Assembly (NCBI GenBank): GCA_965221305.1
Contig: OZ244881.1
Location: 3,542,091-3,606,090, forward strand
Reading direction: 5' to 3'
From: Vicinamibacterales bacterium
GTDB taxonomy: Bacteria > Acidobacteriota > Vicinamibacteria > Vicinamibacterales > UBA8438
Length of the DNA stretch: 64,000 nt
Below the pieces are notes generated by a model. It was not told the origin of the DNA, did no database searches, and saw only the letters and a list, made by a program, of their open reading frames with translations. Of the stretch, positions 26,069 through 43,018 are shown in pieces (within the stretch, counting starts at the first letter, position 1; each line of letters opens with the position of its first letter). The translations under genes and the position numbers were made by a program.

Positions 26069-26256
26069 GGCGCTCCCTTCGGGTCGGGCTGCTCGTCCGG
26101 TCCGTCGATGGTATCGACAGGCGCGTGGAGGTCAGCGCTTCCGCGCGCCGGCGTGCGGTCGATTTCGCTGTCGTACAGGCTGCCAAGAATGCTGTCAGCC
26201 AGAGCATGTCCATTCGCATAAGTCGCTTTTTTTCAGTATTTTGAACTGTCGCAAAA

Positions 26257-26301
26257 GGCGTCATGAACGGTGCCATGAAAGGCGTCATGAACGGTGCCAT
26301 G
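26257..26301 (+). repeat. 24-bp tandem duplication x1.9 at the start of ORF 26263
   Basis: ggcgtcatgaacggtgccatg(aaa) occurs twice in the lowest-GC part of the window (~42-52% GC). Confidence 0.85.
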
Positions 26302-26697
26302 TTACGCGCCGTGGACTGGAGGCGGTTCAGTTTCGAGTGCCAGCTCCGCATCAAGACCAAGCTGAACCGCGTGGTCTACCGTTCCACCCTGGTCCGGGCC
26401 TTCAACCAGCGGGCCGGCAAGCGCCGCCGCGTCATCAACCAGCGCGAGTACCGCTTCCTGGATTTCCTCCTGAAGGAAACCGAGCCCGTCGATCCCTTTG
26501 CCGAGGAGCCTTCGTTGAAGATCGCGTACTCGGAACTTCGCCAGGCGCCGTACGTCCGAGGCGTGTACCGCAACGTCAAGCCCCGCACGTTCCATCGCGA
26601 GCTGACGAGGCTGGCCGAAATGGGGTTCATCAGGTTCCTGGTCCGGCAGCCGGAGCCCACCATCGAGATCGATTTCGGGGCAATCGGCAAGTACTGA
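26263..26697 (+). CDS. Hypothetical protein with probable C-terminal winged-helix (possible gene remnant)
   Basis: 144 aa with high GC3, so probably real coding sequence. KPRTFHRELTRLAEMGFIRF resembles the wHTH at the C-terminus of Fic-type proteins (weak, from memory). No recognisable N-terminal domain. Confidence 0.5.
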   Translation: MNGAMKGVMNGAMLRAVDWRRFSFECQLRIKTKLNRVVYRSTLVRAFNQRAGKRRRVINQREYRFLDFLLKETEPVDPFAEEPSLKIAYSELRQAPYVRGVYRNVKPRTFHRELTRLAEMGFIRFLVRQPEPTIEIDFGAIGKY

Positions 26698-26738
26698 GCG
26701 CGCGTCCGCTCCGGTGCGCGGACGTCGGCGGTTCAGGC

Positions 26739-26791
26739 CAGCACGGGATGCCGAATCGGTTCGTTCTGGCACGCGTGAGCGCCCTGCCACG
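26739..26791. repeat. Left copy of an imperfect direct repeat bracketing the BREX cassette
   Basis: ~40/53 identity to 42396..42448, including the perfect 14-mer GCCGAATCGGTTCG (26750-26763 versus 42407-42420). Confidence 0.6.
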
Positions 26792-26960
26792 TCAGAGTTG
26801 AGCCGGCGTTCGAAGCCCGAGCTGCCAGCCGTACCGCTGCCCGCCCAACCCATCCTGTACCGAGTCGCCGTCGTCCCCGGAGCGGCGCGCCGCCCCAGCT
26901 CCGCCAACCGTTGCCTGCGGCTCCGCTTGGCGCTTGCTACGGCGCAGGTCCTGAGCTTCG

Positions 26961-29723
26961 TCAACCGCGAAGACCGAACTGCACATCGAGCAGATCGCGG
27001 TTGAGCTCGACGGTCTCGGACGATTCGTCGACCGACAGCACGGCGTGGCCGTCGACGTTCAGCACCCGGCGCAAGGCGGAGACGATGCCGCCGAGCCGGA
27101 ACAGTGGGACGCCGAGGCTCTCGGCCAGGGCGCGACCCGTGAGCTTGCCGCCGCGGGCGTCGAGCGCGGTCAGGATGACTCGGATGCGCTCGTCGGGTAG
27201 CGCCGTCCCCGCCGCCTGCCTGCGTTGCTCGGCGAACAGATCCGCTTCGAAGAGGCGGTCGATCCACGTTGCTGCCGTGCGCGACGGCTCGGGTTCCAGA
27301 TCCGCGAACAGGTTCCCCGTCTCCCCCCGGGGCGTCGGGCGGCGCGCCGGCGCCCGCGTTCGGGCTTCGTCCGCCCCGGCGCTCGCGGGGGCGGCCGTCC
27401 CATCCCGCGCCAGCGTTGCGGATGCGGGCGGCGCGTCTGCCCCGGCCCGCCGTCGCCACCAAGCTGGTTCGTCCGGCCCGGCTTCGCGCCAGCCGGCGAG
27501 CTGCGAGGTCGTCTCCGGCAGCGCGAAGATGCCGAGCGGCAGCACTACCTCCTGCGGCGAGGCGCCCCCGTGGTAGCCGTTCTTCTTCATGCCGAAGCGG
27601 ACGCGTTCGCTCCATGGCGCCAGCAGGCGACCGCCTTCGGCCACGACGCGCGGACCCTGCAGCAGCACTTCGTCGTCGGCGGGTTCCCCGCTGGCCGGGC
27701 GCCAACGCTCCGCGCTCTCGGCGATGTCGCGCAGCGCCGTTCCACGCTCCAGCACGTGGCCATGGTCACTCGCGAGCACCACGGCGCGGCCGCAGGAGCG
27801 ACAGGCTTCGAGCAACTCCTCCAAAGGGTGGATGTGCTGCACGGTCCAGGGGAAGCGCACTTGGTCCCCCTTCGCAAGGTGGTCATCGACCGCGTTGATC
27901 ACCACGCCCACGACGCGGCGGTCGGGGTCGGCGATGGCCTCGGCCACACGCGGGGAGACGCCGGCCACGCCGGTCTCGCGCAGGTCTCCCTTGTGGAAGA
28001 GCACCGGTGGTGCGCCGGCCGCGCAGGTCGAGCGCAGGCCGGCGTGTTTGGAGAAGCCGTCCTTCTCCTTCGACGCGTTTCCCGACGTGACCGCGCCGCA
28101 TAACAGGCTCGTCCGCGACACTTCCGTCACCGTGGGCAGGGCGGCGACGACCACGGGACGCTCCGGCGCGTCCTCCGCTACCAGCTCGATCCATCCACGC
28201 CACACCAGATCGTGTTCGAGCTCTCGGAAGACCGCCATGCTCATCGCGTCGACGACCAGGAACAGCACCGGCTGCACGCGGGCGAGGGGTGTGACGCACC
28301 GGTCGAGGACCGCCTCGACGCCGAGCAGGCTCCGCTCGTGCGGTCCCGAACCCGGCCAGTCGGCCAGTTGCCTGCCGAATTCCAGATTCTCTTCTTGGCG
28401 CGCTTCGTCAGCCCGCTCCGCCAGGGTCGCGTAGGCCTCGGCGACGACCGGTGATGGGTCGCCGTCCCAGAGCCGCGCGCGAGCCAAGTCGACGAAGCCA
28501 CCCTCGCACCGATAGGCGCGCACGGCGTTGCCGAAAGACCGCCGGTTTTCGCGGCCGCCGCTCCTCACCGCGAGCCAGCCGGACAGTCGCAGGGCCATCC
28601 GGACGCCGTCGGCGCGACGCCGTTCGCCTGCGGCGAGCGCGTGGTCGAGCACGCGACCGGCGGCGTCGCGCAGCTCGCCCGGGAGCTCGCGCGCATCGCC
28701 TGCGACGAACGCGGTCAGCTCTCTCGCGAAACCGGCGAGGCGCTGATCGAGGCCCATCCGCAGAATCTTGCTGCGGCCGGCGAGACTCTCGGCGCCGAGC
28801 TTGCGGAGCAGGTCGTCCGCATCGGTGAGCACCGCCTCGATCTCGTCGCGCGGTACCCCCGCCGCGGATCGAGACAGCCTGCGCCGGACCACCTGTTCCG
28901 CAGCGTCGGTCCACGCGCGGGCGAGGGCTTCGTCGAGGTCGTCGAGTTCGAGCAGCGCCTCGAGCTTGCCAAGAGATCTGGCCGCCCGGTCATCGCCCCC
29001 GCCGCCCTCGTCGAACAGGACCCGCGCGACGAGGCCGACGGAGACGGCCCGGCGCCCGTGCCGGCCGGCGCACGCCAGAATCGCCCGCGCCGCGGGTCCC
29101 GCGCTGTGCCCAGCGGCGATCACCAAACCGTCGCGCACGGCTTCAGACCGGGTGGCCAGACGCTGCACCGGGTCGTCGTCCAGCGCCCACGCGAGCAGCG
29201 TCTCGGGGTCGCGCTCGCCACGCGGAATACCCGTGAGGCCCTCGAACAGCCGGCGCCAAGCCGTCTCGGCATCCAGAAAACCGCTCGGCGCCGGGGGGTA
29301 ACCGGCCTCCGGCTCCGCGTCGAGGAGCGCCCGCGCCGCCCACTCGTGACGTTCGACAAGGCGCGGGTCGACGAAATGGGCCTTGAACCGTTCCTTCACA
29401 AGCTGCCACGCGTCGATCGAGAACAGCCTGCGGTGGGCGAGCCGCGCGGACAGATCCGCGCCGAGCTGGGGATCCGTCAGATCGGTCAACACCACGATCG
29501 GCGGCCCAGCGGCGGGCAGGTCGACGAGGCGTTCGCGCAACGCCAGCACCGAGCGGCTGCGGACGACCGGGAGTTCCTCGTCGCCGATGCGGAGCGCGGC
29601 CGGCGCCGGGGCGGCCTCATCGAGGACCGGCACGGAGATTCCGATGACCCGTGCGTCCGGGTACCGTTCGCGGATCGACTTTACCTGGGCGTGTATCTGC
29701 GCCGACGATGGGACGACGGTCAT
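26961..29723 (-). CDS. pglZ: BREX/Pgl alkaline-phosphatase-superfamily protein PglZ
   Basis: ATG at 29723 overlaps the pglY stop (ATGA). PglZ-type motifs are present: LFLVVDAMS, LPTVTEVSRTSLLCG, VINAVDDHL and VLASDHGHV. It is the last gene of the pglWXYZ order. Confidence 0.9.
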   Translation of the reverse strand: MTVVPSSAQIHAQVKSIRERYPDARVIGISVPVLDEAAPAPAALRIGDEELPVVRSRSVLALRERLVDLPAAGPPIVVLTDLTDPQLGADLSARLAHRRLFSIDAWQLVKERFKAHFVDPRLVERHEWAARALLDAEPEAGYPPAPSGFLDAETAWRRLFEGLTGIPRGERDPETLLAWALDDDPVQRLATRSEAVRDGLVIAAGHSAGPAARAILACAGRHGRRAVSVGLVARVLFDEGGGGDDRAARSLGKLEALLELDDLDEALARAWTDAAEQVVRRRLSRSAAGVPRDEIEAVLTDADDLLRKLGAESLAGRSKILRMGLDQRLAGFARELTAFVAGDARELPGELRDAAGRVLDHALAAGERRRADGVRMALRLSGWLAVRSGGRENRRSFGNAVRAYRCEGGFVDLARARLWDGDPSPVVAEAYATLAERADEARQEENLEFGRQLADWPGSGPHERSLLGVEAVLDRCVTPLARVQPVLFLVVDAMSMAVFRELEHDLVWRGWIELVAEDAPERPVVVAALPTVTEVSRTSLLCGAVTSGNASKEKDGFSKHAGLRSTCAAGAPPVLFHKGDLRETGVAGVSPRVAEAIADPDRRVVGVVINAVDDHLAKGDQVRFPWTVQHIHPLEELLEACRSCGRAVVLASDHGHVLERGTALRDIAESAERWRPASGEPADDEVLLQGPRVVAEGGRLLAPWSERVRFGMKKNGYHGGASPQEVVLPLGIFALPETTSQLAGWREAGPDEPAWWRRRAGADAPPASATLARDGTAAPASAGADEARTRAPARRPTPRGETGNLFADLEPEPSRTAATWIDRLFEADLFAEQRRQAAGTALPDERIRVILTALDARGGKLTGRALAESLGVPLFRLGGIVSALRRVLNVDGHAVLSVDESSETVELNRDLLDVQFGLRG

Positions 29724-32700
29724 GGGCCGTCCTTCGCGTCGCGCAGCAGCTTCCAGGTGATCTCCATTCGCGCGCCCGGCTGCTTGCGCAGCAGGTCCTC
29801 CAGCTCCGCTGCGAGTTCGCTCAGCTGTCGGCAATCCAGGTCGCGGCGCGACCCCTCGGGCGGGATGGCGTCGCCGCCCAGGTCGGTTACCTCGCGTACA
29901 GTGGCCCCACCACTGCCGGTTCCTTGGCCGGCCGTCGGCCGATGCGGCGCTGGGGGCGCCGGCGAGCGCGCCAGCAGTTTGGCGGCCCGGCCGACAAGAT
30001 CGGACAGTCGGGGGGCCAGCGCCACGGCGTACTCGTCGGCGGCCAGCGCCGCCGCCAACTCGCGGCGAACGCGCTGCGCGTCGTCAGCGCGATCGTCCTT
30101 CAATTCGGCGAGCGGGGCGAAGATCTGCCAATGCGTGCGCTCCAGCACGTCCGCGAGCTCTCCCGCCTTGGCGATGCTCGTCCGCATCGCCTCCAGCGAG
30201 GTCACCGGCTCCAACGCTGCGAGCTTCTCGACCCGCACCCGGCCGTGGAGACCCGCGAGAGACTGCACGAGGGCGCCGCTCGCGCGGGCGGTGCGGAGTC
30301 GGTTGGCGGTCTTCGCGTCGATGGAGACGTCCGCTCCAACGGCAGCGAGTCGTTCGATCAGTGCGTCGCAGGCAGCGCTTTGCTTCGTCGCCGTCTCGCC
30401 GAGCTGTTCCGCGAGGTCGCTCACGTTGCTCGCGTTGCGCAACGGCGACCCCGTCAGCCCGAACAGCCGCTTGGCCCGCTCGACGGCGGCGGTCCACTCG
30501 TCCGCGGACGGCAGCGCCTCTTCGCGCAGCTCGACGTCATCCGGCAGGTCGTCGAGCTTCGCCGGCCACGAAGCCCCGTGCCGCCGGAACGCGAGGTTGG
30601 CCTGATCCGCGTAGACGAGGATGACGAGGTTCGCGGCGGCGTTCGGGAGCCCCATGCGCTGCGGCTCGTCCACGGCCTCGCGGAGCCTGCCGACGGTCAG
30701 TGGCTTTTCCAGCCGCTCGAAGTGGCTGAACCAGTGCCGGCCGACCACGAAGTGGGTCTCGCCCATCTCGCCGAGCCGCAGCGGGGCGGCGATCTGCATC
30801 ATCGCCGGGCGGAGCGGCTTGTCGATGGCGACGCGTCCCTCCGGTTCCTGCACGGCGCGCGACACCTGCTCGTGCACGCGGCGCAGCGCCGCCGCTCCTA
30901 TCGGGGCACCGAAGTCGGGGTGCGCCGGGAACTGGCTCGCACACATCTGCTCGAACAGGTTCGCGAGCGCCTCCCGCAGATTCGCTCGTGCCGGGGGGCG
31001 GGGCTCGAATCTCGGATCGAGGGACTGGAAGTGCTCTGCCGGCGGGAGCGACTCGTCGACCGACCCGGGTACGGGACTCTCCACGCCGTAGGCGCCCTCC
31101 AGGTGCTGGACCAGCCGCTGCCGGAGCTGGCTCTGCTGGTTCCGCATGAGCTCACGGGCGGACGTCTGCTCGGCCGGCGAGAGATGCGCCGCGAATTCGC
31201 GCAACCGCTCGCCGGCCAGGACATAGTCGATACGCACCAGCGTCCCGAGATCCTTCTGCGCAGACGTGCTCAGGAAGGACGGCAACCAGACCAGCGTCCG
31301 CGCCCCGGCATCACGCCCACGAAACTCCTTGAGGCGTGCGAGGTCATCGGCCGGCGTATGCCCCGGATCGTCGAAGGGGAAGTCGATGACTACCTTGCGT
31401 TCGTCCCCCCGCGTCGTCAACGACTCGTCGGGCAACTCCCGTACGTTGGCGAAGATCACCTCGAAGCGGCGCCGCGTGCCCCGCCACGTCGTCTCGTGGT
31501 AGAGAACGAGTTCGTCGCGATCCTCGATGCCGAGCGCGTCGAACAGGACCCTCCGGATCAGGCGGCGCCGGTTGCCGGCGTTGTCGTGCCGGCTGGCGTC
31601 GGCGAGGATGCTCTCGGTGTCTACGGCCGAGAGCTGAATGGCGATGATCGGATCGGCCGGGTCGTCACCAATCCGGACCTCCCCGATCTCGGCTGCCCAG
31701 GCGCGACAGCGCCGCAGCACTTCCTGCCCCTCGCGCCCCTCGATCGGCGTACGTATGGACCCGTGATTGAGCGCCGCGAGCCGCGCCGCGTTCAGATTCT
31801 TGAGCGCGTCGACCTCGGGGGTCAGGGCCGACAGCAGCAGCGTCTTGGCTAACCGATCGTCCGCACGGAGGGCGCGGGCCGCCCCGTCGTCCTTCGGTCG
31901 CGCCGCCGCCGCCGTCTTCGAGATCCCGCGCTCGTTCTCGATGAGCGGGAGGAGTTTCCGGCGGTAGAGGTTCCGCGCGTTCTCGAAGTGGTGGCGTGCA
32001 CTCTCGGTGAACGGCTCGTCGCCCTCGGCCAGCGCGTCGAAGAGGTCGCCGACCGGTACGATTTCGCCCAGCTCGAGCGTCTCGCGCCCGTCGACGAGGA
32101 TCTGGAGCATCACCCTCAGCGCCGTCCGTTCGCGTTGGAGGAGTGAGGAGACCGCGACCAGGGTCTCGACCAGGGCCGGACTGAAGGGGTAGACCTTGCG
32201 GAACGCGGCGGTGTCGGCGCGCGGGGTGAGCAGTGTCTCGAAGACCTCCCGGCGCACTCTCTCGGTCTGCGCGTAGGCGTCGTCGATCTCCCGTCGCGCC
32301 GCCTCGTTCCGCGGCCGCAGCAGGCGGCGCGCCGCTATGTCGGGCAGGTTCCGGTCCTCCAGCGTGATGCGCTCGAAGCGGGCCTCCCACCACTGCAGCA
32401 CGTCCGCGAAGCCGAGCTGCAGCGCGCCCGTCACCTGTTCACCCACGAGTTCGCGCAGGTCGCGCTGGCGCGCGACGAAGCTGACGATCGGGATCGCTCG
32501 CCCGGCCGTCTCCGCCTCGACGAGCTTCGAGACCTTCGGGCCCTCCTTGTTGAGGAACTGGAGATCGGCGGCGTGAGTGGCGAGCCAGAGGATCAGCTCG
32601 TCGAGAAAGAGCACCAGGGCGTCGTAACCCAGGTCGTGCGCGTGCCGGGCCACCACCGCCAGGCCGTCGTCCAGCGGGACGAATGCCTCTTCGCTTCCTC

Positions 32701-33409
32701 GCATCACGTCGCGGTAGCTGCTGAAGAACGAGCCGAGCAGCGCCGCGACCAGCCGGATCCGCTCTTCAGCTACGGCGGGGGCGTCGAGCGCGGCCTCGAA
32801 GCTCGCGGCGTCCCACTGCGTTGACAGATTGCCCCAGCCGGCGGCGGCTCCTGCTGCGCTCGCGGCAGTCTCGTTCAGGCGGGCGAAGAACGTCTCGTCG
32901 CCGACTTCCTTCCGCAGCCTCCGGGCGTCCTCGAACAGCCCGGCGCTGCGGTACACTCCCGGTGCGGGTGCGTCGGGATGCAGCTCGGCGACGCGCGCCG
33001 CGTAGCCCCCGAGCACCGCCGCTTCCAGGCTCGGTTTCCCGATCATGTGATAGGGAACCAGCAGGAAGCGCCGATCGGCGAGCCAGTCGTCGTGCCGCGT
33101 GACGACGCCTTCCAGGCCTGCGGTGGCGCGGGCCTCCGCCTCCTGCTGCAGCAGGAGGTGGAGTACCGCCATGAAGTGGCTCTTGCCGCTGCCGAAGCTC
33201 CCGTGCAGGTAGGCCGCCTTGCTCGATCCGCTCTCCACCGCGGTCTTGATCAGACCGAGGGCGCGGTCGAAAGCGCCGGCGAGCTGCGGCGTCACGACGT
33301 AGGTCCGCAGCGTCTCTGCGGGCTTCGCCACGCCCTCGGCAAGCCGCAGGACGAAGTCGTCGCGGTGCACCCGCTCGGGGATGTCGATCAGGTCGCGGAG
33401 CGGCGTCAT
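29720..33409 (-). CDS. pglY: BREX/Pgl P-loop ATPase PglY
   Basis: ATG at 33409 overlaps the stop of the NTase-HEPN ORF (ATGA). Walker A is GSFGSGKSHF and Walker B-like is LVLFLDELILW. About 1229 aa. The upstream 131 codons of the track ORF are R/G-rich and overlap the HEPN gene. Confidence 0.85.
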   Translation of the reverse strand: MTPLRDLIDIPERVHRDDFVLRLAEGVAKPAETLRTYVVTPQLAGAFDRALGLIKTAVESGSSKAAYLHGSFGSGKSHFMAVLHLLLQQEAEARATAGLEGVVTRHDDWLADRRFLLVPYHMIGKPSLEAAVLGGYAARVAELHPDAPAPGVYRSAGLFEDARRLRKEVGDETFFARLNETAASAAGAAAGWGNLSTQWDAASFEAALDAPAVAEERIRLVAALLGSFFSSYRDVMRGSEEAFVPLDDGLAVVARHAHDLGYDALVLFLDELILWLATHAADLQFLNKEGPKVSKLVEAETAGRAIPIVSFVARQRDLRELVGEQVTGALQLGFADVLQWWEARFERITLEDRNLPDIAARRLLRPRNEAARREIDDAYAQTERVRREVFETLLTPRADTAAFRKVYPFSPALVETLVAVSSLLQRERTALRVMLQILVDGRETLELGEIVPVGDLFDALAEGDEPFTESARHHFENARNLYRRKLLPLIENERGISKTAAAARPKDDGAARALRADDRLAKTLLLSALTPEVDALKNLNAARLAALNHGSIRTPIEGREGQEVLRRCRAWAAEIGEVRIGDDPADPIIAIQLSAVDTESILADASRHDNAGNRRRLIRRVLFDALGIEDRDELVLYHETTWRGTRRRFEVIFANVRELPDESLTTRGDERKVVIDFPFDDPGHTPADDLARLKEFRGRDAGARTLVWLPSFLSTSAQKDLGTLVRIDYVLAGERLREFAAHLSPAEQTSARELMRNQQSQLRQRLVQHLEGAYGVESPVPGSVDESLPPAEHFQSLDPRFEPRPPARANLREALANLFEQMCASQFPAHPDFGAPIGAAALRRVHEQVSRAVQEPEGRVAIDKPLRPAMMQIAAPLRLGEMGETHFVVGRHWFSHFERLEKPLTVGRLREAVDEPQRMGLPNAAANLVILVYADQANLAFRRHGASWPAKLDDLPDDVELREEALPSADEWTAAVERAKRLFGLTGSPLRNASNVSDLAEQLGETATKQSAACDALIERLAAVGADVSIDAKTANRLRTARASGALVQSLAGLHGRVRVEKLAALEPVTSLEAMRTSIAKAGELADVLERTHWQIFAPLAELKDDRADDAQRVRRELAAALAADEYAVALAPRLSDLVGRAAKLLARSPAPPAPHRPTAGQGTGSGGATVREVTDLGGDAIPPEGSRRDLDCRQLSELAAELEDLLRKQPGARMEITWKLLRDAKDGP

Positions 33410-34293
33410 GTGGGGTCCGGCGCTGCGGCCGGCAGGAGCGACGCGACACGCCCGACCGCCCAACCGACGACGGTTGCTGCATTCGCCATGGCCTGCTCGT
33501 ATTCCGCCATCGTTGTCGGTTCCTGCTCGTCGCTGACATCCGGGTACCGTCCACCGTCGCCATAGAGCGTCAGCGCCGCCCCCTGCCGCACGTCGTCGGG
33601 AATCACCTCGCCGACCTGTTCCGCCCGGTCGAGCAGACGACCGATGTCGTGCACATATGGAAACGGTTCGCCGTGCGCGATGATGACGGCCTTGACGGCC
33701 TTTTCGGCTCCGTAGTGGGCCTCCGAGCACAACAACCGGAGGTTCAGTCCTGGTTCGTGCCTTGCGGCGATCTTCAGGTGATCTTGCGCTTCCGTAATCC
33801 ACAGTCGAGCGGCATCCGCTTCGAGCGCGCGGCGCGGGTTCATGGCAGCGCTACTCCCCTGGAGAGGAACCGGCGCCGCCGAACCGTCAGGCTCGATCCG
33901 TTTCGGTGGTGAGGGCGGCCCGGGCGAGCTTCCCCGGCCCCGGAGCGCCGATTGACCTGCCTGTTTCGATGGCTCTTCATGGATCGTCCTGCCCTCCCGC
34001 AGCGCCGGCGCGATGACCAGCCAGTGCGAATCGCGGTGCCTGACGAGATCCTCGGGCCAGACCACCACCACATCGACAGCGGGTCGCGGCCGGGGCAGAC
34101 CGAGGTAGATGCGGGCCGCCGTCTTCCTCCGATGACACTTGTCCTTGACGACAAGCAGGTCGACGTCACTCGACGACGTCATCTCCCCCCGGGCGGCGGA
34201 ACCGAACAGGATGATCTTCTCCGGCGCCACCGCGTCAACGATGCTCTCGACGATGCGTTCAAGGACGCCGTTCGGCAGTGCTCGATCCATCAT
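33406..34293 (-). CDS. Fused nucleotidyltransferase (MNT-like) - HEPN domain protein
   Basis: A single 295-aa ORF. The N-terminal part carries the NTase signature GSAARGEMTSSSDVDLLVV. A P/S/G-rich linker follows. The C-terminal part is HEPN-like: AEKAVKAVIIAHGEPFPYVHDIGRLLD ... LYGDGGRYP. An internal ATG at ~33843 could also express HEPN alone. Confidence 0.8.
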   Translation of the reverse strand: MMDRALPNGVLERIVESIVDAVAPEKIILFGSAARGEMTSSSDVDLLVVKDKCHRRKTAARIYLGLPRPRPAVDVVVVWPEDLVRHRDSHWLVIAPALREGRTIHEEPSKQAGQSALRGRGSSPGPPSPPKRIEPDGSAAPVPLQGSSAAMNPRRALEADAARLWITEAQDHLKIAARHEPGLNLRLLCSEAHYGAEKAVKAVIIAHGEPFPYVHDIGRLLDRAEQVGEVIPDDVRQGAALTLYGDGGRYPDVSDEQEPTTMAEYEQAMANAATVVGWAVGRVASLLPAAAPDPT

Positions 34294-34350
34294 CGCGATT
34301 ATGCCGCCTTGGCAGGCGCGTCGACAATCCCCGCCGAAACGCCGGCCGGA

Positions 34351-37300
34351 TCACGTGGCCCTTCCGCGGCGGCCGCGCTTTGCCGCACCGCCCGGCGGCG
34401 CCCAGCCCCGGAGCGACTCACGGGTCAGCGAGAGCGACCGCGCCTCGTCGTCGATGAACGCCTCGAAGTAGTCGCCCATCCCCACGTCGAACTCGGGGTC
34501 GGGCGCATTGTGGTACTGCCGTACCCACGGCAGCAGCTCCAGCAAGGCCGCCAGGAGGGGCGCCAGCCGCTCGGCCGTCCAGCCCTCCTGCTCCCGCATC
34601 CGGTTATAGTACCCGGCAACGGCCCGGCTTTGCGCCAGCGCGTCCCAGCCCGCCCAGGCGACGACCAGGGAAGGGTCGGCGTCGCGCTCGCAGCCCGGCA
34701 GACTCACGAAGCGCTCCTTCGGCACGTCGAGCTTGCCCCGCAGGCGCCACCAGTGGCTCTTGCGGAAGTCGGCCGACGCATAGCGCGGCGGGCCGGGGAC
34801 CGGGCCCACCTCCTCCGCCTTGAGTGCCACCGCTGCTTCCGCGGTCAGGCGCTCAGGGTCCCCCGCGGGCAGGGTGACCCGTGCGTCGATGGCGTCCTCC
34901 CTCCGCTGCAACGCCCAGGTGCGCTCCCAGGCGGCGCGCTTGCGGAGCCCGGACGGCCTGTAGCGCAACACCGGGAGCAGCGGGACGCTCTCGTCGTCGA
35001 TCAGTCGGGCGACCAGCTTCGCAACATCGAAGTCGGCGCGCCCGGCATACAGCGCCGCCACCTGCTGGAACTCGGCGTCGTCCCGCACGCGGTCGGCCAG
35101 CGCCGCGGTGGTCGTGAGGCGCCGCTCCGACCAGAGCGCGGGCGCTTCGAGTCGGTCGAGCAACCAACCCCGCAGCGCCCGTTCCTGCTGCGCCTCCCAC
35201 GGCTCGTCGTTCCAGCGGCGCTTGTACTCGGGCCGCTCGATCAGGGCGACGTTGGCGTTTCGCTCGATGGTCTCGATGCGCCGCCGGACGAGTGCGCGGT
35301 AGGCGGCCGGCCAGTGCGCCGGGATCTCGGTGATCGGCGTCGAGCCGTGGCGTTCGAACCACTTCGTCTCGATCTCGCCGGCCGCCATCTTTCGCGCGAG
35401 GACGATCTCGAAGGCACGCTCGCCGAGGCGGACAGCGGGCACGTCGGTGCTCTTCGCGGAAGGCACGCAGAGCGCGCTATCGGTCACGCCGTAGAGCCCG
35501 TAGCAGCGCCAGTCGAGTTCTTCCTGGAGGGCGATCATCTGTTCGCGAAGCTCACCGCATCGAGCGCGCGCCGTGTCCAGGTCAGCGGCTGAAGGCGTAC
35601 TACGTTCGGCAATTGAGGCTGGAAGGGACTGAGCCCTGTCGGCTGCGGCGGAGTCAAGTATTCGTGCGAATTCGAGTGGCGTGTCGCTGGGTATCGGACA
35701 ACGGTGGAGTTTCGTGCCATCGAACTCGTAGAACTGTTCCCATTCCTCGGTCGCCAAGCCGCCACCAATCCCCCCGCCACCCTTGTTGTGAAGGGCCTGT
35801 TTCATCCAGAAACAAGCCGTCGAACTATTGAGTAAGCCCAGCAGTTCCAGATGGTCGTCCTCGGTGGCGTCTGCGGGAAGCTTGATCACCGGTGCTGTTC
35901 GCTTGAAGACCTTGCCTCCGCGGTCGAGCACGAAGTGATTGTGCGTTGTAACGAAGGCAAAAGTAATGGAGAGCGGATTTCGAAATCGTTCACGAAAGAA
36001 CATAGAGTACTCATACCATGTCAGTCCGCGTTCGATCTGCGATTGTCCATAAGCAATACGTTGAACAAGTCGAGATCGCCAGGGCCACAGAGACTTTAGT
36101 ACCGCTGGGTCCGCGATTGTCTCCAGGGTTTGGGAATCGTATGGCCAAATCGCACCCACCGATTCACAGATGGTCCAGTCACGAACATCCTCGCCCGCCG
36201 TGAGCGGACGAATCTGATCCGCTCCGATGCTCCGACGCTTGGCAACTCGCGTTCCGAGGCGGAATGCTTCATCCTCGCGCGTAACCGCTCCGAAGCCTAT
36301 CTCCGTGGCCATATCGCCGAGCGTCTTTGGTGCCCACTGTGCAAGGTGCTCCTTCAGTTCTGCAGCTCCCCCCCCGCCGACGCTCCAGGGATGCGTGTGG
36401 AACCGTTCTCTCTGCACATCCGACGCGCTCACGAACTTGCTCTGTGATCCAGGATAGTCGACCTGTTCGATGATCGCCGACCAGACAAGTCCACGCGCTG
36501 GATTCTCCGGTGTCGTCGGCTCACCATGGATGCCCATCACTGTGCGCACGTTCCTGTCGACTGGCCGGCGGTGTCGTCCGAAGAGGATCACCGTGGGTGT
36601 CCCGTGGCCGGGGATGTAGGCGCCGGAGGTGTCCACGACGTGGGTCAGGTCCCAGCGCGGGACAAACGTTTCGATTAGACATTTGCCGAACTCTCTCTTC
36701 ATGAACGAGTTGGCGGTGATCATCCCAACGAACCCGGCCGGCTCCGTGGAGCCGGCCGGGGAGACGTGGGCGAGGTCGAAGAGACGCTCGGTGAACGGCA
36801 CCGCCAGCGAGTACTGCCGGTAGCAGGACTTGAAACGCCTGCGGTACTCGTCGTTCACTGCCTTGTCCTTGGCGGTGATGTATGGCGGGTTGCCGACCAC
36901 CGCGTGGTAGCGGCGGCCGAGGATGACCCGCAGTGCGGAGGCGTCCTCCGTGCGGTAGACGTGACCCAGCGGGTCGCGTTCGGGATCGAGGTACTCCTGC
37001 CGCGCACCGGCTGTCCCGGCACGCGGGCCGTGGAGCAGGGCGTCGCCGGTCGCCACGTGAATCTCGAACGCGGGTGCGTCGGCGAGGCGCTGCACGCCGG
37101 CCGCATGGAGGGCCGCGACGCACAGGCGGAAGCGGGCTATCGCGGTCGCGAACGGGTTCAGGTCGACGCCGGCCACTTGCCGGAGAACACGGCTCGCCCG
37201 GTTGCGAGCGTTCGTGCCGGGCTCGTGCCGCGCCCAGAGCGCGTCCAGTCTTCGGAAGGCGCCGAGCAGGAAGTGTCCGGAGCCGCAGGCGGGGTCGATC

Positions 37301-38016
37301 AGGCGCACGTCGCGGAAACCGAACTCCTCGATGGCGGGATCGAGTGTGCGGTCGAGGATGAACTCCTCCACGAACGCGGGCGTCTGGAGCAGCGCGTACC
37401 GTCGGCGGGCGCTGTCGGAGAGGTCCTGATAGAGGTCGCCGAGAAAGCGCGTGTCCCAGGCCGTGTCGGTGAAGTCGTGCGCGAGGGCGCCGGAATCGGG
37501 GTCTATGCGTTGCCACAGGCCGAGCAGCCGGCCCGCGGCGTCACCCGAGGGAGCGCGAAACTGCTGGCCCGGCGGTTCGAGCGACCAGATGGGATTGTGG
37601 GCTTCGTCGAAGATGCGGTCGGCGACGGGCAGCGCGGCCACCTTGCGAAACACGTGGAGCAGGTAGTCGCGGTCGCTCTCTTTGGGGTTCGCCCGGAAGT
37701 AGAGGGTGTGCTCGTCGAGCGCCCGCCGGCGCCGGTCGCCGGGACCCGACAACCGCGGTGGGTCGATGAGGGCGTTGTCTTCGAGAAACCGCACGAAGAC
37801 GCAGCCGAGAATCCAGGCTACGGCGACCTGGGTCAGGTGCTCGTCGCGCCAGGAATCGTACGGCTCGGCGGTGCGTTCGTGCGCGCGCGCCTCGTTGTGC
37901 ATGCGTCGGAGGTGAACATCCAGCCGCGGCTCCTCGCCGCAACACGCCCGCAGGTCGTCCTCCAGGTCCGCCCGCAGACGCTTCAGGTCGGCGAGCAGGC
38001 GGTCGCTGTCGATCAC
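34351..38016 (-). CDS. pglX: BREX/Pgl N6-adenine DNA methyltransferase PglX
   Basis: SAM motif I is IDPACGSGHFLL and motif IV is VVGNPPYI (nt ~36881-36892). About 1221 aa. The proposed GTG start at 38016 overlaps the pglW stop (GTGA). The track start at 38088 is an alternative. Confidence 0.9.
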   Translation of the reverse strand: MIDSDRLLADLKRLRADLEDDLRACCGEEPRLDVHLRRMHNEARAHERTAEPYDSWRDEHLTQVAVAWILGCVFVRFLEDNALIDPPRLSGPGDRRRRALDEHTLYFRANPKESDRDYLLHVFRKVAALPVADRIFDEAHNPIWSLEPPGQQFRAPSGDAAGRLLGLWQRIDPDSGALAHDFTDTAWDTRFLGDLYQDLSDSARRRYALLQTPAFVEEFILDRTLDPAIEEFGFRDVRLIDPACGSGHFLLGAFRRLDALWARHEPGTNARNRASRVLRQVAGVDLNPFATAIARFRLCVAALHAAGVQRLADAPAFEIHVATGDALLHGPRAGTAGARQEYLDPERDPLGHVYRTEDASALRVILGRRYHAVVGNPPYITAKDKAVNDEYRRRFKSCYRQYSLAVPFTERLFDLAHVSPAGSTEPAGFVGMITANSFMKREFGKCLIETFVPRWDLTHVVDTSGAYIPGHGTPTVILFGRHRRPVDRNVRTVMGIHGEPTTPENPARGLVWSAIIEQVDYPGSQSKFVSASDVQRERFHTHPWSVGGGGAAELKEHLAQWAPKTLGDMATEIGFGAVTREDEAFRLGTRVAKRRSIGADQIRPLTAGEDVRDWTICESVGAIWPYDSQTLETIADPAVLKSLWPWRSRLVQRIAYGQSQIERGLTWYEYSMFFRERFRNPLSITFAFVTTHNHFVLDRGGKVFKRTAPVIKLPADATEDDHLELLGLLNSSTACFWMKQALHNKGGGGIGGGLATEEWEQFYEFDGTKLHRCPIPSDTPLEFARILDSAAADRAQSLPASIAERSTPSAADLDTARARCGELREQMIALQEELDWRCYGLYGVTDSALCVPSAKSTDVPAVRLGERAFEIVLARKMAAGEIETKWFERHGSTPITEIPAHWPAAYRALVRRRIETIERNANVALIERPEYKRRWNDEPWEAQQERALRGWLLDRLEAPALWSERRLTTTAALADRVRDDAEFQQVAALYAGRADFDVAKLVARLIDDESVPLLPVLRYRPSGLRKRAAWERTWALQRREDAIDARVTLPAGDPERLTAEAAVALKAEEVGPVPGPPRYASADFRKSHWWRLRGKLDVPKERFVSLPGCERDADPSLVVAWAGWDALAQSRAVAGYYNRMREQEGWTAERLAPLLAALLELLPWVRQYHNAPDPEFDVGMGDYFEAFIDDEARSLSLTRESLRGWAPPGGAAKRGRRGRAT

Positions 38017-41000
38017 GCCGTGGCCACTCCCGACGGCGGCGCCGCCGGGCCGTTGGCGGCGAGCCACGTCGGGGGAATGCGAGCCCACTGCGCGGCCGTG
38101 AACACGGGGACGGGTGCGCCATCGACCATGGGGCGCGACTCCTGTGCATCGGACGGAACGAGCAGCCAGACGCCGGGCGGCCCGTCCGGTCCTCCCGCAG
38201 CATCCCGGAGGTGGTCGAGCAGCGTCATCTGGTCGTAGCGGGCCAACAGACCCAGGTTCGTCAGCAGCAACGGGCGCGGTGCGGCGGCCAGCTCGGCCCG
38301 CACGCGCGGCAGGGCGCGGTGGCTGACCAGGCGCATGAGGGCGGCCCAGTCGGCGCTGCCGCGCGGCTCGTCGTCAGCGCGCAGAACGATACCCCAGTCC
38401 GCGCCAGCTTCGTCGGCGGCGGCCTTCATATGTCGGATCAGCAGCTCGTCGGCACTGCGGGCGTCGATGGCGAATTGCGAGACCAGGGCACGCTCCGCGT
38501 CCGCGAGCCGGCGGGGCGATACCGTCAGGGCGAGGAAAGCCTGGTTCTGCAAGGCGCGTCGCAACCGTTCGTCGAAGGCGTCGGTAGCATCCATTCCGGC
38601 GCCGCTTCCGGCGACCCGTGCGGCGCCATGGCTGGCACGGGTATGGCTCGTGGCCGAGCCGATGGTCACGAAGCCCCGGAGCGGCGAGCGGTATGTGCCT
38701 AGCCCGTCAGCGGTGTCCGGCGCCCAGACCAGCTCGCTGCCCGCGTCGTGGAGCAGGGTGTCGAGTTCGGGCCGGTCGGGCAGGGGCGCCGCTTCGGGGT
38801 AGCGCCCGGCCACGCGCCTACGGATTTCTTCGGGGGTGAGGTTGCGGGCGCCCGCGAGTGCCCCCAGTGCGAGCCGCAGCGCCCGGTCGGCCGGCATGCC
38901 GCGCGGATAGAGCTCGAGCCGACTGGAGAGCTCGGCGTTCTGGGAAACCGCGGCGGCGAGCGTGAGCAGCCGGTTCGGCGCCAGGGGCGCGATTCCGGAC
39001 GGGGTCGCGACGCCCTGCAGCTCGTCCAGGACCCGCGCCGGCGAGAGCAGCGGGTCGGCGGCCGACAGCCCGTCGGCGGTGCGGCCGAGGCGTTGGGCGA
39101 AGTCGGCGAGCCGTTGGCCATCGACGCGCAGCTCGCCGCGTTCGTCGCCCACGTCGCGCGCCAGGAGGGCGCCGGCGGGGCCGTCCAGGCGGCGCACGAT
39201 CCAGCGTGGCGCCGCGCGCTGGCGCTCGACCTCGACCGCGGCGCGAACGCACGCGTCGGCGTAGCGCGAACGAAGCGGATCTTCCTGCACCGACCCGCGG
39301 CGCGCCAAGAGCGCGGAGGCAAGCTCCGTCCGGGTCATCACGTTCCCGTATGCCGCGAGCATCTCGACGACGTCGTTTCGCAGACGGGTCAGCGCGCCGA
39401 GCTTGTTCCAGCGCCGCCGCGACCGCGCCGCCGCCTGGCTGACCGCCGTCGGGGTGACCCCGAGCCACCGGGCGACGTCGCTCTGGCTCGGCCAGGGCGC
39501 CGCGGGCGCGTCGTCGCGCAGCCCCAGCAGGGTCCCCGCCAAGTCCGCGTCGCGCCGCGACTGCGCGGTTCGGCCGGCGGGCAGAAGCAGCCGCCGAAGC
39601 TCGTCTACGCTCTCGTGCCCCGCGTCGGCGGTAACGTCGGCGTCGTCTCCGGTGGAGGAGACCTTCGGCGCGCCGGCCACCCCCGGGAACCGCTCGGCCA
39701 GCCGCCGGGCCAGATCGGTGATCTCGCGGCGGGTCCGAATGCCGACGCCGCGCATCCGGTTCACCTGGATGAGCGGGAACCGCAACAGGTCGCCAACGGA
39801 GTGGACGCCCATCCGCTCGACGGCGTTCATGGCGCGGGCGCTGAGCTTCATGGCCGCCAACAGCGTGTCGAGACGCGCCTGCTCGATGCCGCTGAACGTG
39901 GGCTCTGCGCCCACGGGGTCGGTGTCGGTCTCGGGCCGCGCCGCCGTCGCGAAGAGCCGCCGCCAAGCGCGCAGCATCTCGTCGGCGTTGTCGAAGCGCT
40001 GGCGGTAGTCGCGGCGCAGCGCCTTTTGGAAGAACGCGGTCAGGTCTTCGCGGACGGCTGGCTCGAAGGCGTCGGCGTCGACGGTGGCTTCGCACTCGAG
40101 GACCGCGGGCTCACTCTGCCCGTCGCCCCAACACGGCAGCGATCCAGCCGCCATCTGGTGCAGCGTGACGGCCGCCGCGAACCGTTCCGCGTGCGTGTCC
40201 CAGCGCGGCGGCTTGCGCGTCCGGAGGAACGGGTCGAGGTAGTGGCGCGTGCCCGCCAGGACGTTCTCGGCCGGTGTATGCGCCAACGAGAAGTCGAAGA
40301 GCACGAGATGGAGCTGGTTGCCAATCTTGGCGGTTCCCAGGTTCTCGGGCTTGATGTCGCGGTGCGGAATGCCCTTCTGCTCCAGCCAGTCGATGGTGGC
40401 CAGCAGGTCTTCGCCGAACCGCTCGAGCAGCTCCAGGTGCAGGCGGCCCTCGTCGCGCAGGCGGTCCGCGAGCGTGCAGTCGCCGGCGCGGGCCATGAGC
40501 AGCCCGACGCGTTCGCGGCCCGCGCCGTGGCGGAACGTCAGCTCGTCGTGGAGCTCGACGATGTACTGATGCCGCAGGCGGCGCATGACGTCCGCCTCGG
40601 CACGCAGGCGGTCGTTGTGGTCGGGAGACAGCGCCACCTTGAGCACATGCTCCCGCCCGTCGCGTTCGACGAGGAGGGCCACCGCCGTCGAGCCCTTGCC
40701 GAGCCGCCGCTTCATGACAAGGCCGTGGCCGAGATCTTCTTCGGGGCGGGCCTCGATCGGGTCATGTCGGCGACCCTCGTCGGGCCGGGTCAGCTCTTCC
40801 TCGACGCTTCCGAGCTCGTTCAGGAACTCGCCGACCGACCCGAGCCGCGTCGTCACTTCGGGATGAGTGGCGTACTGCACGAGAAGCTGAAGGCTCTCGC
40901 ACGCGCCGTCGAGGTCGGAGGATAGCTGCAGCCCCTGCTCCTTCAGGAGCCGCTCGGTCATGGCGGCGAGACCCGTCGCCGGCGGGCGGCCGGAGAAGAG

Positions 41001-42272
41001 GTGGTACGCGATGGCGCCGACCGAGAACACGTCGATCTGCTCGCCTGCCGCGCCGCGCTCGGTCACCGCCTCGGGCGCCATGTAGACCCAGGCGGCCTCT
41101 TCGACGAACGGGTCGAGGCGGCTCGCCCCCGTCGTGGCCGGCCCGGGCGTCCCGGTGTCGGCCGCGTGGCGTGCCCCGGTCTGCCAGTTGAAGATCTGGA
41201 CGCGCGGCTGGGCGGCCTCGGGGTCGAAGACGAGGATGCTCTGAGGCGACAACGCCCGGTGGACAAGGTGCTTCGCATGGGCGAAGCGCACGGCTTCCGC
41301 AACTTGGCGGAGGAGATGCAGCCGGGTGTCGACGTCGAGGCGCGTGCCGTGCTCGGCGAGCCAGTGGTCGAAGCGCTGCGAGTCTTCCCGGTGCTCGAAG
41401 ACGAGCGCCGGCCCGCGGACGTGCTCGGTGTACGCCTTGGCCGCGAGGATGCCGTCGTGGCGCACATCGCTCAGGATCTGGTACTCGCGCTGGGCCGCCC
41501 GTTGCAGCGCCGCCCGTTCGTCGTCCGACGCGTCTGGGGGAATCGCGTAGATTCGGACCCGCGCGTGCTCGCCCTCGATCGCCGCGTGACGCGCTGTCCA
41601 GTCCTGGTAGTTCGGCCCTTCGAAGAGGAGTGCGTCGAGCCGGTAGTCGCCCACCCGGTGCTTGCCCTGCGACGGGCGGATGCCCGCTTCCTGCATGGCC
41701 CGGCTGACAGCCTTGGCCATCGGCCGATCGATACGCGCGCGGTGCGGCGTCCCGGCGCTGTGCCGGGTGAGGGCGGCAACGATGCCAGGGCGCTCGTTCC
41801 GCCCCTTGCCTTCGTCACGGCAGTGGACGTGGTTGCGCAGGTCGTCCGTGAGCCGGCAGTCGACGTCCTCGTGCGACAGGAAGACCTGGGCTTCCAGGAA
41901 AGGGCTCGCCGCCTTCCGCAGCGCCGGCTGACGGCGCAGGAGCGAAACGAGCTTCTTCGCCTTCCGGTTCGCGAGCAGCAGCGGGTTGTCGACCGTCTGC
42001 GGGCGCCCGTCGCCCCGCCAGACCCACGTGCCCTGGTCGCCCTCCACGGTGCCGGGGCGGCTCTTGATCTCGACGAGGTAGAAGCCCTTCGGCGTCAGCG
42101 CGAGCAGGTCGACTTCGTTGATCGAGCCGTCGTCGGCGATGAACTCGAAGTTCGCCCAGGCGCGGTACGGCTCGTGGTCGGGCAGCCGGTCGCGCACGAA
42201 CGCCAGCGCGTCCCGCTCCCAGGGGAACGCCGAGTCGGTGACCGCCTGCCAGCGGGGCGAAGTTGCTTCCAT
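38013..42272 (-). CDS. pglW: BREX/Pgl serine/threonine kinase PglW (NERD, degenerate kinase, canonical kinase, HhH/HTH, C-terminal region)
   Basis: N-terminal NERD-like segment (WERDALAFVRDRL..EVDLLALTPKGFYLVEIKS). The first kinase-like domain lacks the catalytic Asp (HRALSPQSIL). The second is canonical (LGKGSTAV, VLKV, HRDIKPEN, DFS). LSARAMNAVERMGVHSVGDLL is an alpha-CTD-like helix-hairpin-helix. Start taken at MEATSPRWQ. Confidence 0.9.
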   Translation of the reverse strand: MEATSPRWQAVTDSAFPWERDALAFVRDRLPDHEPYRAWANFEFIADDGSINEVDLLALTPKGFYLVEIKSRPGTVEGDQGTWVWRGDGRPQTVDNPLLLANRKAKKLVSLLRRQPALRKAASPFLEAQVFLSHEDVDCRLTDDLRNHVHCRDEGKGRNERPGIVAALTRHSAGTPHRARIDRPMAKAVSRAMQEAGIRPSQGKHRVGDYRLDALLFEGPNYQDWTARHAAIEGEHARVRIYAIPPDASDDERAALQRAAQREYQILSDVRHDGILAAKAYTEHVRGPALVFEHREDSQRFDHWLAEHGTRLDVDTRLHLLRQVAEAVRFAHAKHLVHRALSPQSILVFDPEAAQPRVQIFNWQTGARHAADTGTPGPATTGASRLDPFVEEAAWVYMAPEAVTERGAAGEQIDVFSVGAIAYHLFSGRPPATGLAAMTERLLKEQGLQLSSDLDGACESLQLLVQYATHPEVTTRLGSVGEFLNELGSVEEELTRPDEGRRHDPIEARPEEDLGHGLVMKRRLGKGSTAVALLVERDGREHVLKVALSPDHNDRLRAEADVMRRLRHQYIVELHDELTFRHGAGRERVGLLMARAGDCTLADRLRDEGRLHLELLERFGEDLLATIDWLEQKGIPHRDIKPENLGTAKIGNQLHLVLFDFSLAHTPAENVLAGTRHYLDPFLRTRKPPRWDTHAERFAAAVTLHQMAAGSLPCWGDGQSEPAVLECEATVDADAFEPAVREDLTAFFQKALRRDYRQRFDNADEMLRAWRRLFATAARPETDTDPVGAEPTFSGIEQARLDTLLAAMKLSARAMNAVERMGVHSVGDLLRFPLIQVNRMRGVGIRTRREITDLARRLAERFPGVAGAPKVSSTGDDADVTADAGHESVDELRRLLLPAGRTAQSRRDADLAGTLLGLRDDAPAAPWPSQSDVARWLGVTPTAVSQAAARSRRRWNKLGALTRLRNDVVEMLAAYGNVMTRTELASALLARRGSVQEDPLRSRYADACVRAAVEVERQRAAPRWIVRRLDGPAGALLARDVGDERGELRVDGQRLADFAQRLGRTADGLSAADPLLSPARVLDELQGVATPSGIAPLAPNRLLTLAAAVSQNAELSSRLELYPRGMPADRALRLALGALAGARNLTPEEIRRRVAGRYPEAAPLPDRPELDTLLHDAGSELVWAPDTADGLGTYRSPLRGFVTIGSATSHTRASHGAARVAGSGAGMDATDAFDERLRRALQNQAFLALTVSPRRLADAERALVSQFAIDARSADELLIRHMKAAADEAGADWGIVLRADDEPRGSADWAALMRLVSHRALPRVRAELAAAPRPLLLTNLGLLARYDQMTLLDHLRDAAGGPDGPPGVWLLVPSDAQESRPMVDGAPVPVFTAAQWARIPPTWLAANGPAAPPSGVATA

Positions 42273-42395
42273 GGCGTGGCGCACTCGCGGTGCCCCGAGC
42301 AGTCGCGGACCGCCCGGCACGCCCGAATCCTAGCCCGTCGAGCGGGCGGAGTCACCCACCATCGACAAGGCTGGCCTGCGAAAGCCTCATCACGC

Positions 42396-42448
42396 CCGCA
42401 CGACAGGCCGAATCGGTTCGCTCGGGCAGGCGCGGACGCCCCGCGCGG
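42396..42448. repeat. Right copy of the imperfect direct repeat bracketing the BREX cassette
   Basis: See 26739..26791. This copy lies 125-175 nt upstream of the pglW start. Confidence 0.6.
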
Positions 42449-42477: not shown

Positions 42478-42948
42478 TCATCCCTGATCGGCGGTCCGCC
42501 GGCTGTCCGGGGCCCGCGGGTGGCCGTCCCCCGGCCCTTCCGTCGCTATCATCACGTCGGTCGCCTTGATCAGGGCCGTCGCGGCGTCGCCGCGCCGGAG
42601 GCCCAGCTCGTCGAGAGCGTCGCGGGTGATGACGGCGGTCAGCCACTGGTCGCCGATGCGGAGGCGCACTTGGGCGACGAGGCCCTCTCGGCGGACCTCG
42701 TCGACGACGCCCTGCAGCCGGTTGCGGCCGCTGATGCGGACGAGCACGCCGCCGCCGCCGCGGCCGCCGGGGTGGGTGGGCGGCCGGCCGGTGCGGGCGA
42801 GCAGGCGCTCGACCTCGGTTTCGGCCAGGCGGTGATGCCCGCCCGCGGTGCGGGTGGTGCGGACCTCGCCCCGGTAGATCCAGTGCTTGAGGGTGGAGTA
42901 ACCGATGCCGAGACGCTCCGCCGCCTGCCGCACCGTCAGGGTGGCCAT
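42478..42948 (-). CDS. HTH (excisionase/MerR-like) plus TOBE/Mop-domain molybdate-responsive regulator
   Basis: The MATLTVRQAAERLGIGYSTLKHWIYRGEV HTH is followed by a TOBE-like ISGRNRLQGVVDEV..LTAVITRDALDELGLRRGDAATALIKATDVMI. It is divergent from modA. Confidence 0.8.
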   Translation of the reverse strand: MATLTVRQAAERLGIGYSTLKHWIYRGEVRTTRTAGGHHRLAETEVERLLARTGRPPTHPGGRGGGGVLVRISGRNRLQGVVDEVRREGLVAQVRLRIGDQWLTAVITRDALDELGLRRGDAATALIKATDVMIATEGPGDGHPRAPDSRRTADQG

Positions 42949-43018
42949 GCTTCCTGCGCTCCCTTGTGCCCCGGTCTCATGACACTCGACATCAGTCGGC
43001 AAACTCAATCCGAATCGC

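Follow-up and report, generated by a model that had tools for sequence, protein, structure and literature searches.

The 64,000-nt stretch of DNA analyzed here (the window; G+C content of ~71%) belongs to the chromosome of a Vicinamibacterales acidobacterium, and its positions 26961 to 42272 are occupied by a type 2 bacteriophage exclusion (BREX) system, also called phage growth limitation (Pgl). Five open reading frames (ORFs), all codirectional on the minus strand, follow each other in the order pglW-pglX-NTase/HEPN-pglY-pglZ, where the third gene encodes a nucleotidyltransferase (NTase) fused to a HEPN domain. The assignment to type 2 was made protein by protein using the PADLOC profile hidden Markov models, complemented with Pfam domains. 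The product of pglW (38013-42272), the signature gene specific to type 2, matched PDLC02512 with 1590 bits over profile positions 2-1395 of 1403, and that of pglX (34351-38016) matched PDLC02529 with 1664 bits (positions 2-1186 of 1189). PglY (29720-33409), an ORC/Cdc6-like AAA+ ATPase of the BrxC family, was recovered by the BrxC-PglY profile PDLC02488 with 1496 bits (positions 2-1238 of 1240), and PglZ (26961-29723), a protein with an alkaline-phosphatase fold, by PDLC02565 with 857 bits (positions 1-908 of 910); the Pfam domain of the latter scored 23.9 bits, slightly below the cutoff of 25. The 295-aa NTase-HEPN protein (33406-34293) carried the Pfam domains NTP_transf_2/Polbeta and HEPN (PF05168, 55.6 bits). 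This chromosomal operon is an intact and ordinary anti-phage system of BREX type 2 (Pgl).

The domains and catalytic motifs of the four large proteins, the latter read on the translations, were those of their families. PglW showed in Pfam a NERD domain, two Pkinase domains and an RNA_pol_A_CTD-like domain, corresponding to a NERD nuclease domain, a pseudokinase, an active Ser/Thr/Tyr kinase, a helix-hairpin-helix like that of the C-terminal domain of the RNA polymerase alpha subunit, and a C-terminal sensor half. The first kinase has the motif HRALSPQS, which lacks the catalytic Asp, while the second has the canonical HRDIKPEN and DFS. PglX, a predicted N6-adenine DNA methyltransferase, combines an Eco57I/MmeI_Mtase methylase with a C-terminal DUF7008 and presents the methyltransferase motif NPPY, as VVGNPPYI. 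The Walker A (GSFGSGKSH) and Walker B (LFLDEL) motifs of PglY are both invariant in the PglY alignment, and the metal-site motifs of PglZ (VVDAMS and SDHGH) are intact. All four genes are full-length, for a total of 13.4 kb of coding sequence, show no stop codon or frameshift and keep every catalytic motif.

The genes are tightly packed. The GTG start of pglX overlaps the stop of pglW (GTGA at 38016-38013), the stop of the NTase-HEPN gene overlaps the start of pglY (ATGA at 33409-33406), and pglY and pglZ share an ATGA at 29723-29720. At each of these three overlaps the profile match starts at the overlapping start codon, and the ATG of pglW at 42272 also agrees with the start of its profile. 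The only spacer, of 57 nt, lies between the stop of pglX (34351) and the ATG of the NTase-HEPN gene (34293). The first-pass annotation of this DNA, based on its letters and ORFs, had read here a type 2 BREX/Pgl cassette organized as one operon with start/stop overlaps and an NTase-HEPN insert between pglX and pglY. The profiles assigned the proteins to PglW, PglX, PglY and PglZ of type 2 and not to other families, Pfam recovered both domains of the insert, and the three 4-nt overlaps were found in the sequence, so all of these points held.

The cassette lacks brxD and brxHI, the pair of genes that often follows pglZ and encodes an ATPase and a Ski2/Lhr-like helicase, respectively. Searches with authentic BrxD and BrxHI (tblastn) found neither in any frame of the window, and six-frame searches of the 4.59-Mb genome (8 contigs, 98% complete) with tblastn and PF10923 recovered no true brxD or brxHI, only distant paralogues 1.5 Mb away. 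The earlier reading that the pair is lacking therefore stands, including the case in which revised gene calls would place either gene next to the cassette. Hidden copies were ruled out by Pfam and PADLOC searches of the flanking ORFs together with the PF10923 genome scan and tblastn.

The comparison with other genomes of the genus revealed how this situation arose. The cassette lies between a modE-like regulator and a short-chain dehydrogenase (SDR) gene, and the same site takes four forms. In the sister species G005 the order is modE-pglW-pglX-NTase/HEPN-pglY-pglZ-brxD-brxHI-SDR. The window has this order without brxD and brxHI, and where G005 carries both genes, in ~6 kb, it has 0.85 kb of unrelated sequence instead. 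In G004, all that lies between modE and the SDR gene is NTase-HEPN in its fused form (85% identity), a pglY stub of 77 aa, and two brxHI stubs, one N-terminal and one C-terminal. In G002, we found no pgl or brx genes in the ~2 kb that separate modE from the SDR gene. Since G005 keeps both genes at the same site, G004 keeps brxHI stubs and G002 is empty, brxD and brxHI were lost by deletion in the lineage of the window. All the other genomes of the genus with an intact PglW carry a true BrxD (>620 bits). The deletion or replacement scar, of 852 nt (26089-26940), is unique to the window genome when compared by blastn and tblastn with G005, G004 and G002. It contains on the plus strand an orphan ORF of ~150 aa (26245-26697), which includes tandem 12/24-nt repeats (26254-26301) and had no match in Pfam or PADLOC. 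No DNA homologous to this ORF was found at the site in G002, G004 or G005, and the ORF may be what is left of a larger gene. Two other arrangements were observed in the genus: in G015, pglW and brxD are each present in two full copies, which presumably belong to two separate type 2 BREX systems, one of them adjoining modE, and in G010 ~25 kb separate pglW from brxD.

The divergence of the cassette from that of G005 is similar to the divergence of its surroundings. The number of synonymous substitutions per site (dS) was 0.40 to 0.42 for pglW, pglY and pglZ and 0.19 to 0.38 for the flanking genes, and the ratio of nonsynonymous to synonymous substitutions (dN/dS) was 0.24 to 0.28 for the four pgl genes and 0.20 to 0.41 for the flanking ones. 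Together with the shared site, these values show that the cassette was already between modE and the SDR gene in the ancestor common with at least one sister species, that it evolved under purifying selection, and that brxD and brxHI were deleted later.

One part of the operon has a different history. In the central segment of PglX (aa 501-850; 35467-36516, minus strand), the G+C content at third codon positions falls to 0.46-0.68, while the remainder of pglX has 0.84-0.96. The identity of this segment to PglX proteins of the same genus or close to it is 49 to 58%, while the N- and C-terminal parts are 77 to 87% identical, and its dS relative to G005 is 1.34, three-fold that of the flanking parts (0.35-0.44). 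These data show a recombinant replacement by a segment of foreign composition. The segment lies between the methylase core and DUF7008 and is presumably the target-recognition part of the protein. The motif methylated by this PglX is therefore probably not the one methylated in the sister species.

We then placed these features in the diversity of type 2 systems. A PglY-anchored scan with one genome per species provided at least 311 loci, of which the best 80 were examined. They spread over at least six phyla (Pseudomonadota, Planctomycetota, Verrucomicrobiota, Cyanobacteriota, Acidobacteriota, and Actinomycetota), and the closest one is in the chromosome of a Vicinamibacterales bacterium (OY761475.2). 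Contiguous pglW-pglX-pglY-pglZ genes, as identified by tblastn, are the norm among the examined loci, including many of actinomycetes. The presence of brxD and brxHI was counted in the 63 loci whose sequence extends 4 kb or more beyond pglZ: 57 had both directly downstream, 5 had neither and 1 was partial. The loci without the dyad include the sister pair Azoarcus indigens and "Candidatus Competibacter denitrificans". In a 2026 survey, type 2 BREX was identified in 1309 taxa, 1039 of them actinomycetes, with PglW in ~80%, BrxHI in 91% and BrxD in 88% of the taxa (PMC12839542). The same survey described auxiliary effectors embedded in BREX loci: HEPN, sometimes fused to a minimal nucleotidyltransferase (MNT), GmrSD, and Schlafen (PMC12839542). 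BrxD and BrxHI are thus frequent but not universal components of type 2, with ~10% of the loci lacking the dyad.

These frequencies change the weight of the features singled out earlier. The first-pass annotation implied that the locus was unusual because of its contiguous genes, its diderm host, and the lack of brxD and brxHI. All three features are real, and the host is a diderm, soil-type Vicinamibacterales acidobacterium with a TonB-dependent receptor (Plug and beta-barrel domains in Pfam) at 12936-15305 of the window. However, each of them is common or documented in our scan or in the survey. Diderm hosts are common in the scan and belong to Pseudomonadota, Planctomycetota, Verrucomicrobiota, Cyanobacteriota, and Acidobacteriota. 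Accordingly, nonactinomycete hosts, loci without the dyad, and HEPN or MNT-HEPN auxiliaries had all been described, so that every feature singled out earlier is already on record. In the PglY tree the window branches within a group of Vicinamibacterales (support of 100) that is sister to Chromatiaceae (support of 100), and all 23 actinomycete loci are on one side. A recent transfer from Actinobacteria is therefore ruled out. No synteny of the flanks was found with the 80 distant loci; it is confined to the genus.

The gene between pglX and pglY encodes a minimal nucleotidyltransferase (aa 1-110), a disordered linker rich in P, S and G (aa 111-150), and a HEPN domain (aa 151-295). The active-site motif GSx(10)DxD of the NTase is intact (FGSAARGEMTSSSDVDLLV). 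The AlphaFold2 model showed two confident domains and a linker with a predicted local distance difference test score below 50. A search of PDB sequences gave weak matches for the NTase only, among them a chain of MntA. A fused ORF of 295 to 296 aa is found in the window, in locus L087, in the P0126 cluster (32 metagenomic sequences), and in G004, and fused homologues with 81 to 83% identity were identified. In L086 and G005, an NTase (111 aa) and a HEPN (163 aa) are instead encoded by two overlapping genes between pglX and pglY, and the stop of the HEPN gene overlaps the start of pglY. The two-gene antitoxin/toxin layout is not that of the window, where there is a single 295-aa ORF. DNA alignment showed that the fusion results from an in-frame insertion of ~137 nt, which encodes the linker and keeps the ATG of the HEPN gene (M151). 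Since the insertion is in frame and common to the independent assemblies of L087, P0126, and G004, an assembly frameshift was ruled out and the fusion is real.

The cargo gene may also have its own expression signals. A match to a sigma-70-like promoter (TTGTCG-18-CATAAT; 34298-34327, minus strand) lies in the 57-nt spacer and ends 5 nt before the ATG of the gene. It was identified by its match to the consensus, in a scan that returned 4 sites in the region for 0.5 expected. Transcription of the cargo gene and of pglYZ could start internally from this site; the gene probably has its own promoter and is translationally coupled to pglY. Among type 2 loci, the pglX-pglY junction is a hotspot for cargo. 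Of 60 loci, 34 have more than 200 bp between the two genes, and up to 8.3 kb, with genes encoding Fic/DOC, GmrSD, Uma2, AAA_21/AAA_15 with DUF4276, Schlafen, NTase, HTH, and SNF2 proteins. Examples of such gaps are found in L009 (2977-10001), L053 (5072-10001), and L060 to L063. The NTase-HEPN gene is most likely a self-contained module, either toxin-antitoxin-like or a backup effector, and its persistence by itself in G004 is compatible with an addictive element.

The borders of the insertion site are conserved. On the right, the modE-like regulator (HTH and TOBE domains in Pfam; 42478-43041, minus strand) is codirectional with pglW, 205 nt upstream of it, and is followed by ModABC; its orthologues, at 82 to 87% DNA identity, are found in most of the same-genus genomes searched (18 listed). 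On the left, the orphan ORF is followed by the SDR gene (adh_short in Pfam; 25058-26131, minus strand) and, according to Pfam, by genes for a beta-lactamase-fold protein and an endonuclease/exonuclease/phosphatase (EEP)-fold protein. The orthologues of the SDR gene are 91 to 92% identical and adjoin the site in G002, G004, and G005 (blastn/tblastn). Just past modABC we observed a candidate defense pair, HEC-01 (45592-47408, plus strand), made of an ABC-type ATPase (HEC-01A, 523 bits) and a DUF4276 protein (HEC-01B, 218 bits), so the molybdate operon has defense genes on both sides. The flanks of the cassette showed neither an integrase nor a transposase. ARAGORN called two tRNAs at 2 to 7 kb from the cassette, of which Rfam found only the tRNA-Ser at 20025-20115; the other, a 94-nt tRNA-Val(GAC) at 24717-24810 (plus strand), has no Rfam gathering match and may be false.

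Two copies of a 55-nt imperfect direct repeat, both given on the plus strand and 78% identical, bracket the whole pgl operon. The left copy is at 26733-26787 and the right one, at 42390-42444, lies between the stop of modE and the start of pglW. The 14-nt core of the repeat (GCCGAATCGGTTCG) occurs exactly twice in the 4.59-Mb genome. The repeat was not found at the same site in G005, G004, and G002, and one match of 84% was found elsewhere in G013. The host genome is the second smallest of 22 from the genus, which mostly range from 4.9 to 7.3 Mb, and the sole smaller assembly is 84% complete.

We consider that these observations are best explained by a vertically inherited type 2 BREX system at the modE-SDR site, from which brxD and brxHI were deleted and in which NTase-HEPN is accessory cargo, and we give this explanation a probability of around 80%. 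By analogy with what is known of BREX/Pgl, PglX would methylate adenines in a specific motif, set by the central recognition segment that was exchanged by recombination in this lineage. PglY (the AAA+ ATPase), PglZ (phosphatase-fold and nuclease-like), and PglW (with its NERD nuclease, kinase, and DNA-binding sensor) would read the mark and block phage DNA. We lean toward the four-gene system being still active, because its core genes are intact and full-length and have evolved under purifying selection, and because other lineages keep the four-gene form. Several points weigh against this explanation. The dispensability of BrxD and BrxHI is an assumption. The dN/dS values are averages over the entire divergence from G005 and cannot reveal the selection that followed the deletion, and at 71% G+C chance alone keeps ORFs open longer than elsewhere. 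The decay of pgl genes is frequent in the genus, and the window copy could be at the first step on that path. The bracketing 55-nt repeats are left unaccounted for. Two further points concern the cargo gene: the top full-length fold matches of its product are two-domain nucleotidyltransferases and not toxin-antitoxin complexes, and the conserved Rx4-6H of HEPN toxins was not found in an alignment of 19 sequences, the only such motif being a nonconserved Rx6H (R186...H193).

The first alternative accepts that the cassette is a type 2 BREX by descent and proposes that the loss of the dyad disabled it. The window would then hold an early remnant on the way to the state of G004, retaining at most an orphan methyltransferase and an addictive NTase-HEPN. 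Decay in the genus takes several forms, with a stop codon in the pglW of G013, fragments in G009, G020, and G021, and in G004 a near-total deletion that spared NTase-HEPN. The window genome is also the only one of the genus with an intact PglW but no true BrxD, its small size (4.6 Mb) agrees with a deletion bias, and the retention of BrxD and BrxHI in 88 to 91% of type 2 taxa suggests that they are important (PMC12839542). Nevertheless, 13.4 kb of coding sequence without stops or frameshifts and with intact motifs weighs against a remnant, and other lineages have retained pglW, pglX, pglY, and pglZ without the dyad through speciation. Furthermore, in the genetic work that PMC4365076 cites, the Pgl resistance of Streptomyces coelicolor was defined by pglW, pglX, pglY, and pglZ. 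We therefore regard a disabled system as unlikely, though it is one of the two strongest competitors.

The second competitor, which we judge similarly doubtful, concerns the NTase-HEPN protein, which could be a two-domain nucleotidyltransferase enzyme of the kanamycin nucleotidyltransferase/HalB type. Such an enzyme would modify a small molecule or a protein, or would make a nucleotide signal, and its HEPN fold would be just the substrate-binding half. The best full-length matches in the fold search were Hailong HalB (E value of 2e-5), ANT(4'), AadA, and ANT(9). The NTase motif is intact, and the HEPN domain has conserved E197, K201, H215, R249, and Y250 but no conserved Rx4-6H. However, the TM-scores of these full-length matches were low (0.3-0.4), and the separate domains matched the MNT antitoxins and HEPN toxins of the solved toxin-antitoxin complexes 8xeo, 7bxo, 7ae9, and 8xeh. 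The overlapping 111-aa and 163-aa genes of close relatives have the classic layout of an MNT-HEPN pair, and in G004 the module has outlived the other genes of its cassette, which is the behavior expected of an addictive element.

A more elaborate proposal is that of a naturally minimized four-gene Pgl that functions in a diderm host with neither BrxD nor BrxHI. As a fusion translationally coupled to pglY, MNT-HEPN would serve in it as an integrated abortive-infection backup, in which the NTase restrains the HEPN in cis until Pgl (e.g., the PglW kinase) or the phage releases it. We consider this combination improbable. The least probable explanation, that the functions of BrxD and BrxHI are supplied in trans by paralogues, would rely on a cluster 1.5 Mb away (G000:C1:2062356-2068372; L005:6357-12372, minus strand), where three adjacent, tandem ORFs encode PF10923 BrxC_BrxD-family ATPases next to a 734-aa BrxHI/SngC-like helicase (247 bits on the PADLOC BrxHI profile PDLC02503 and 32 to 33% identity to true BrxHI), but the ATPases (392, 429, and 455 aa) reach just 28 to 82 bits on the PADLOC BrxD profile, compared with ~670 for a true BrxD, and matches of like strength, some of them tandem, were also obtained in congeners whether or not they have Pgl (G001 and G004, which lack PglW, and G013, which also has a true BrxD), so that complementation in trans is very hard to sustain. 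The cluster, whose G+C content at third codon positions is below that of its surroundings, is a candidate stand-alone BrxD/BrxHI-like or Shango-like defense module.

As a discovery the locus matters little, since its component features were already described (PMC12839542). Its value is comparative: one genus presents at one site a six-gene system, a four-gene system, a cargo remnant, and an empty site. This series, together with the swapped segment of PglX, could be used to test the need for BrxD and BrxHI and the change of PglX specificity, in a BREX type that has seen very little experimental work. If the proposal of a minimized system were true, the genus series would show, as a ready-made natural experiment, which components type 2 BREX requires.

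The classification of BREX by Goldfarb et al. in 2015 is said to place the pglWXYZ genes of S. coelicolor as type 2. The window resembles this system in all four signature proteins, in their domain layout, and in the W-X-Y-Z order of most loci. It differs in the gap between pglX and pglY, which in the window holds one 0.9-kb cargo gene, spans 6.5 to 8.3 kb in Micromonospora loci, and is presumably of several kb in S. coelicolor. It also differs by its acidobacterial host, with a PglY that branches with those of other diderm phyla and apart from the 23 actinomycete loci, and by the lack of brxD and brxHI, which are present in 88 to 91% of type 2 taxa (PMC12839542). Close counterparts are the Vicinamibacterales cassettes of G005, L007, and L086. 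The cassette of G005 is at the same modE-SDR site, with PglW, PglX, PglY, and PglZ showing 74 to 81% protein identity to those of the window, and the PglY of the Vicinamibacterales cassette L086 is up to 85% identical. All three have an NTase and a HEPN between pglX and pglY, with a stop that overlaps the start of pglY. They differ in keeping brxD and brxHI directly after pglZ, in encoding NTase and HEPN as two overlapping genes, and in the central segment of PglX, in which they are just 49 to 58% identical to the window.

The cargo gene shares with the MNT-HEPN pairs (HepT/MntA, type VII) the minimal NTase with GS...DxD, the four-helix HEPN fold, and, in close relatives, the two-gene form. 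In the window, a disordered linker of ~40 aa joins NTase and HEPN into one protein, and the PF05168-type HEPN is without the conserved Rx4-6H. Like the HEPN "backup effector" modules of BREX, it is embedded in the core locus (PMC12839542). A similar organization is known in type 1 BREX, where the system of plasmid pEFER carries an embedded BrxU of the GmrSD family (PMC8565348). Both types have accessory defense or toxin-antitoxin genes inside the operon, and GmrSD-family genes are also found in the pglX-pglY gaps of type 2. The type of BREX and the junction differ, the latter being pglX-pglY in the window, and the cargo at this junction is the type 2 counterpart of the accessory genes embedded in type 1 loci.

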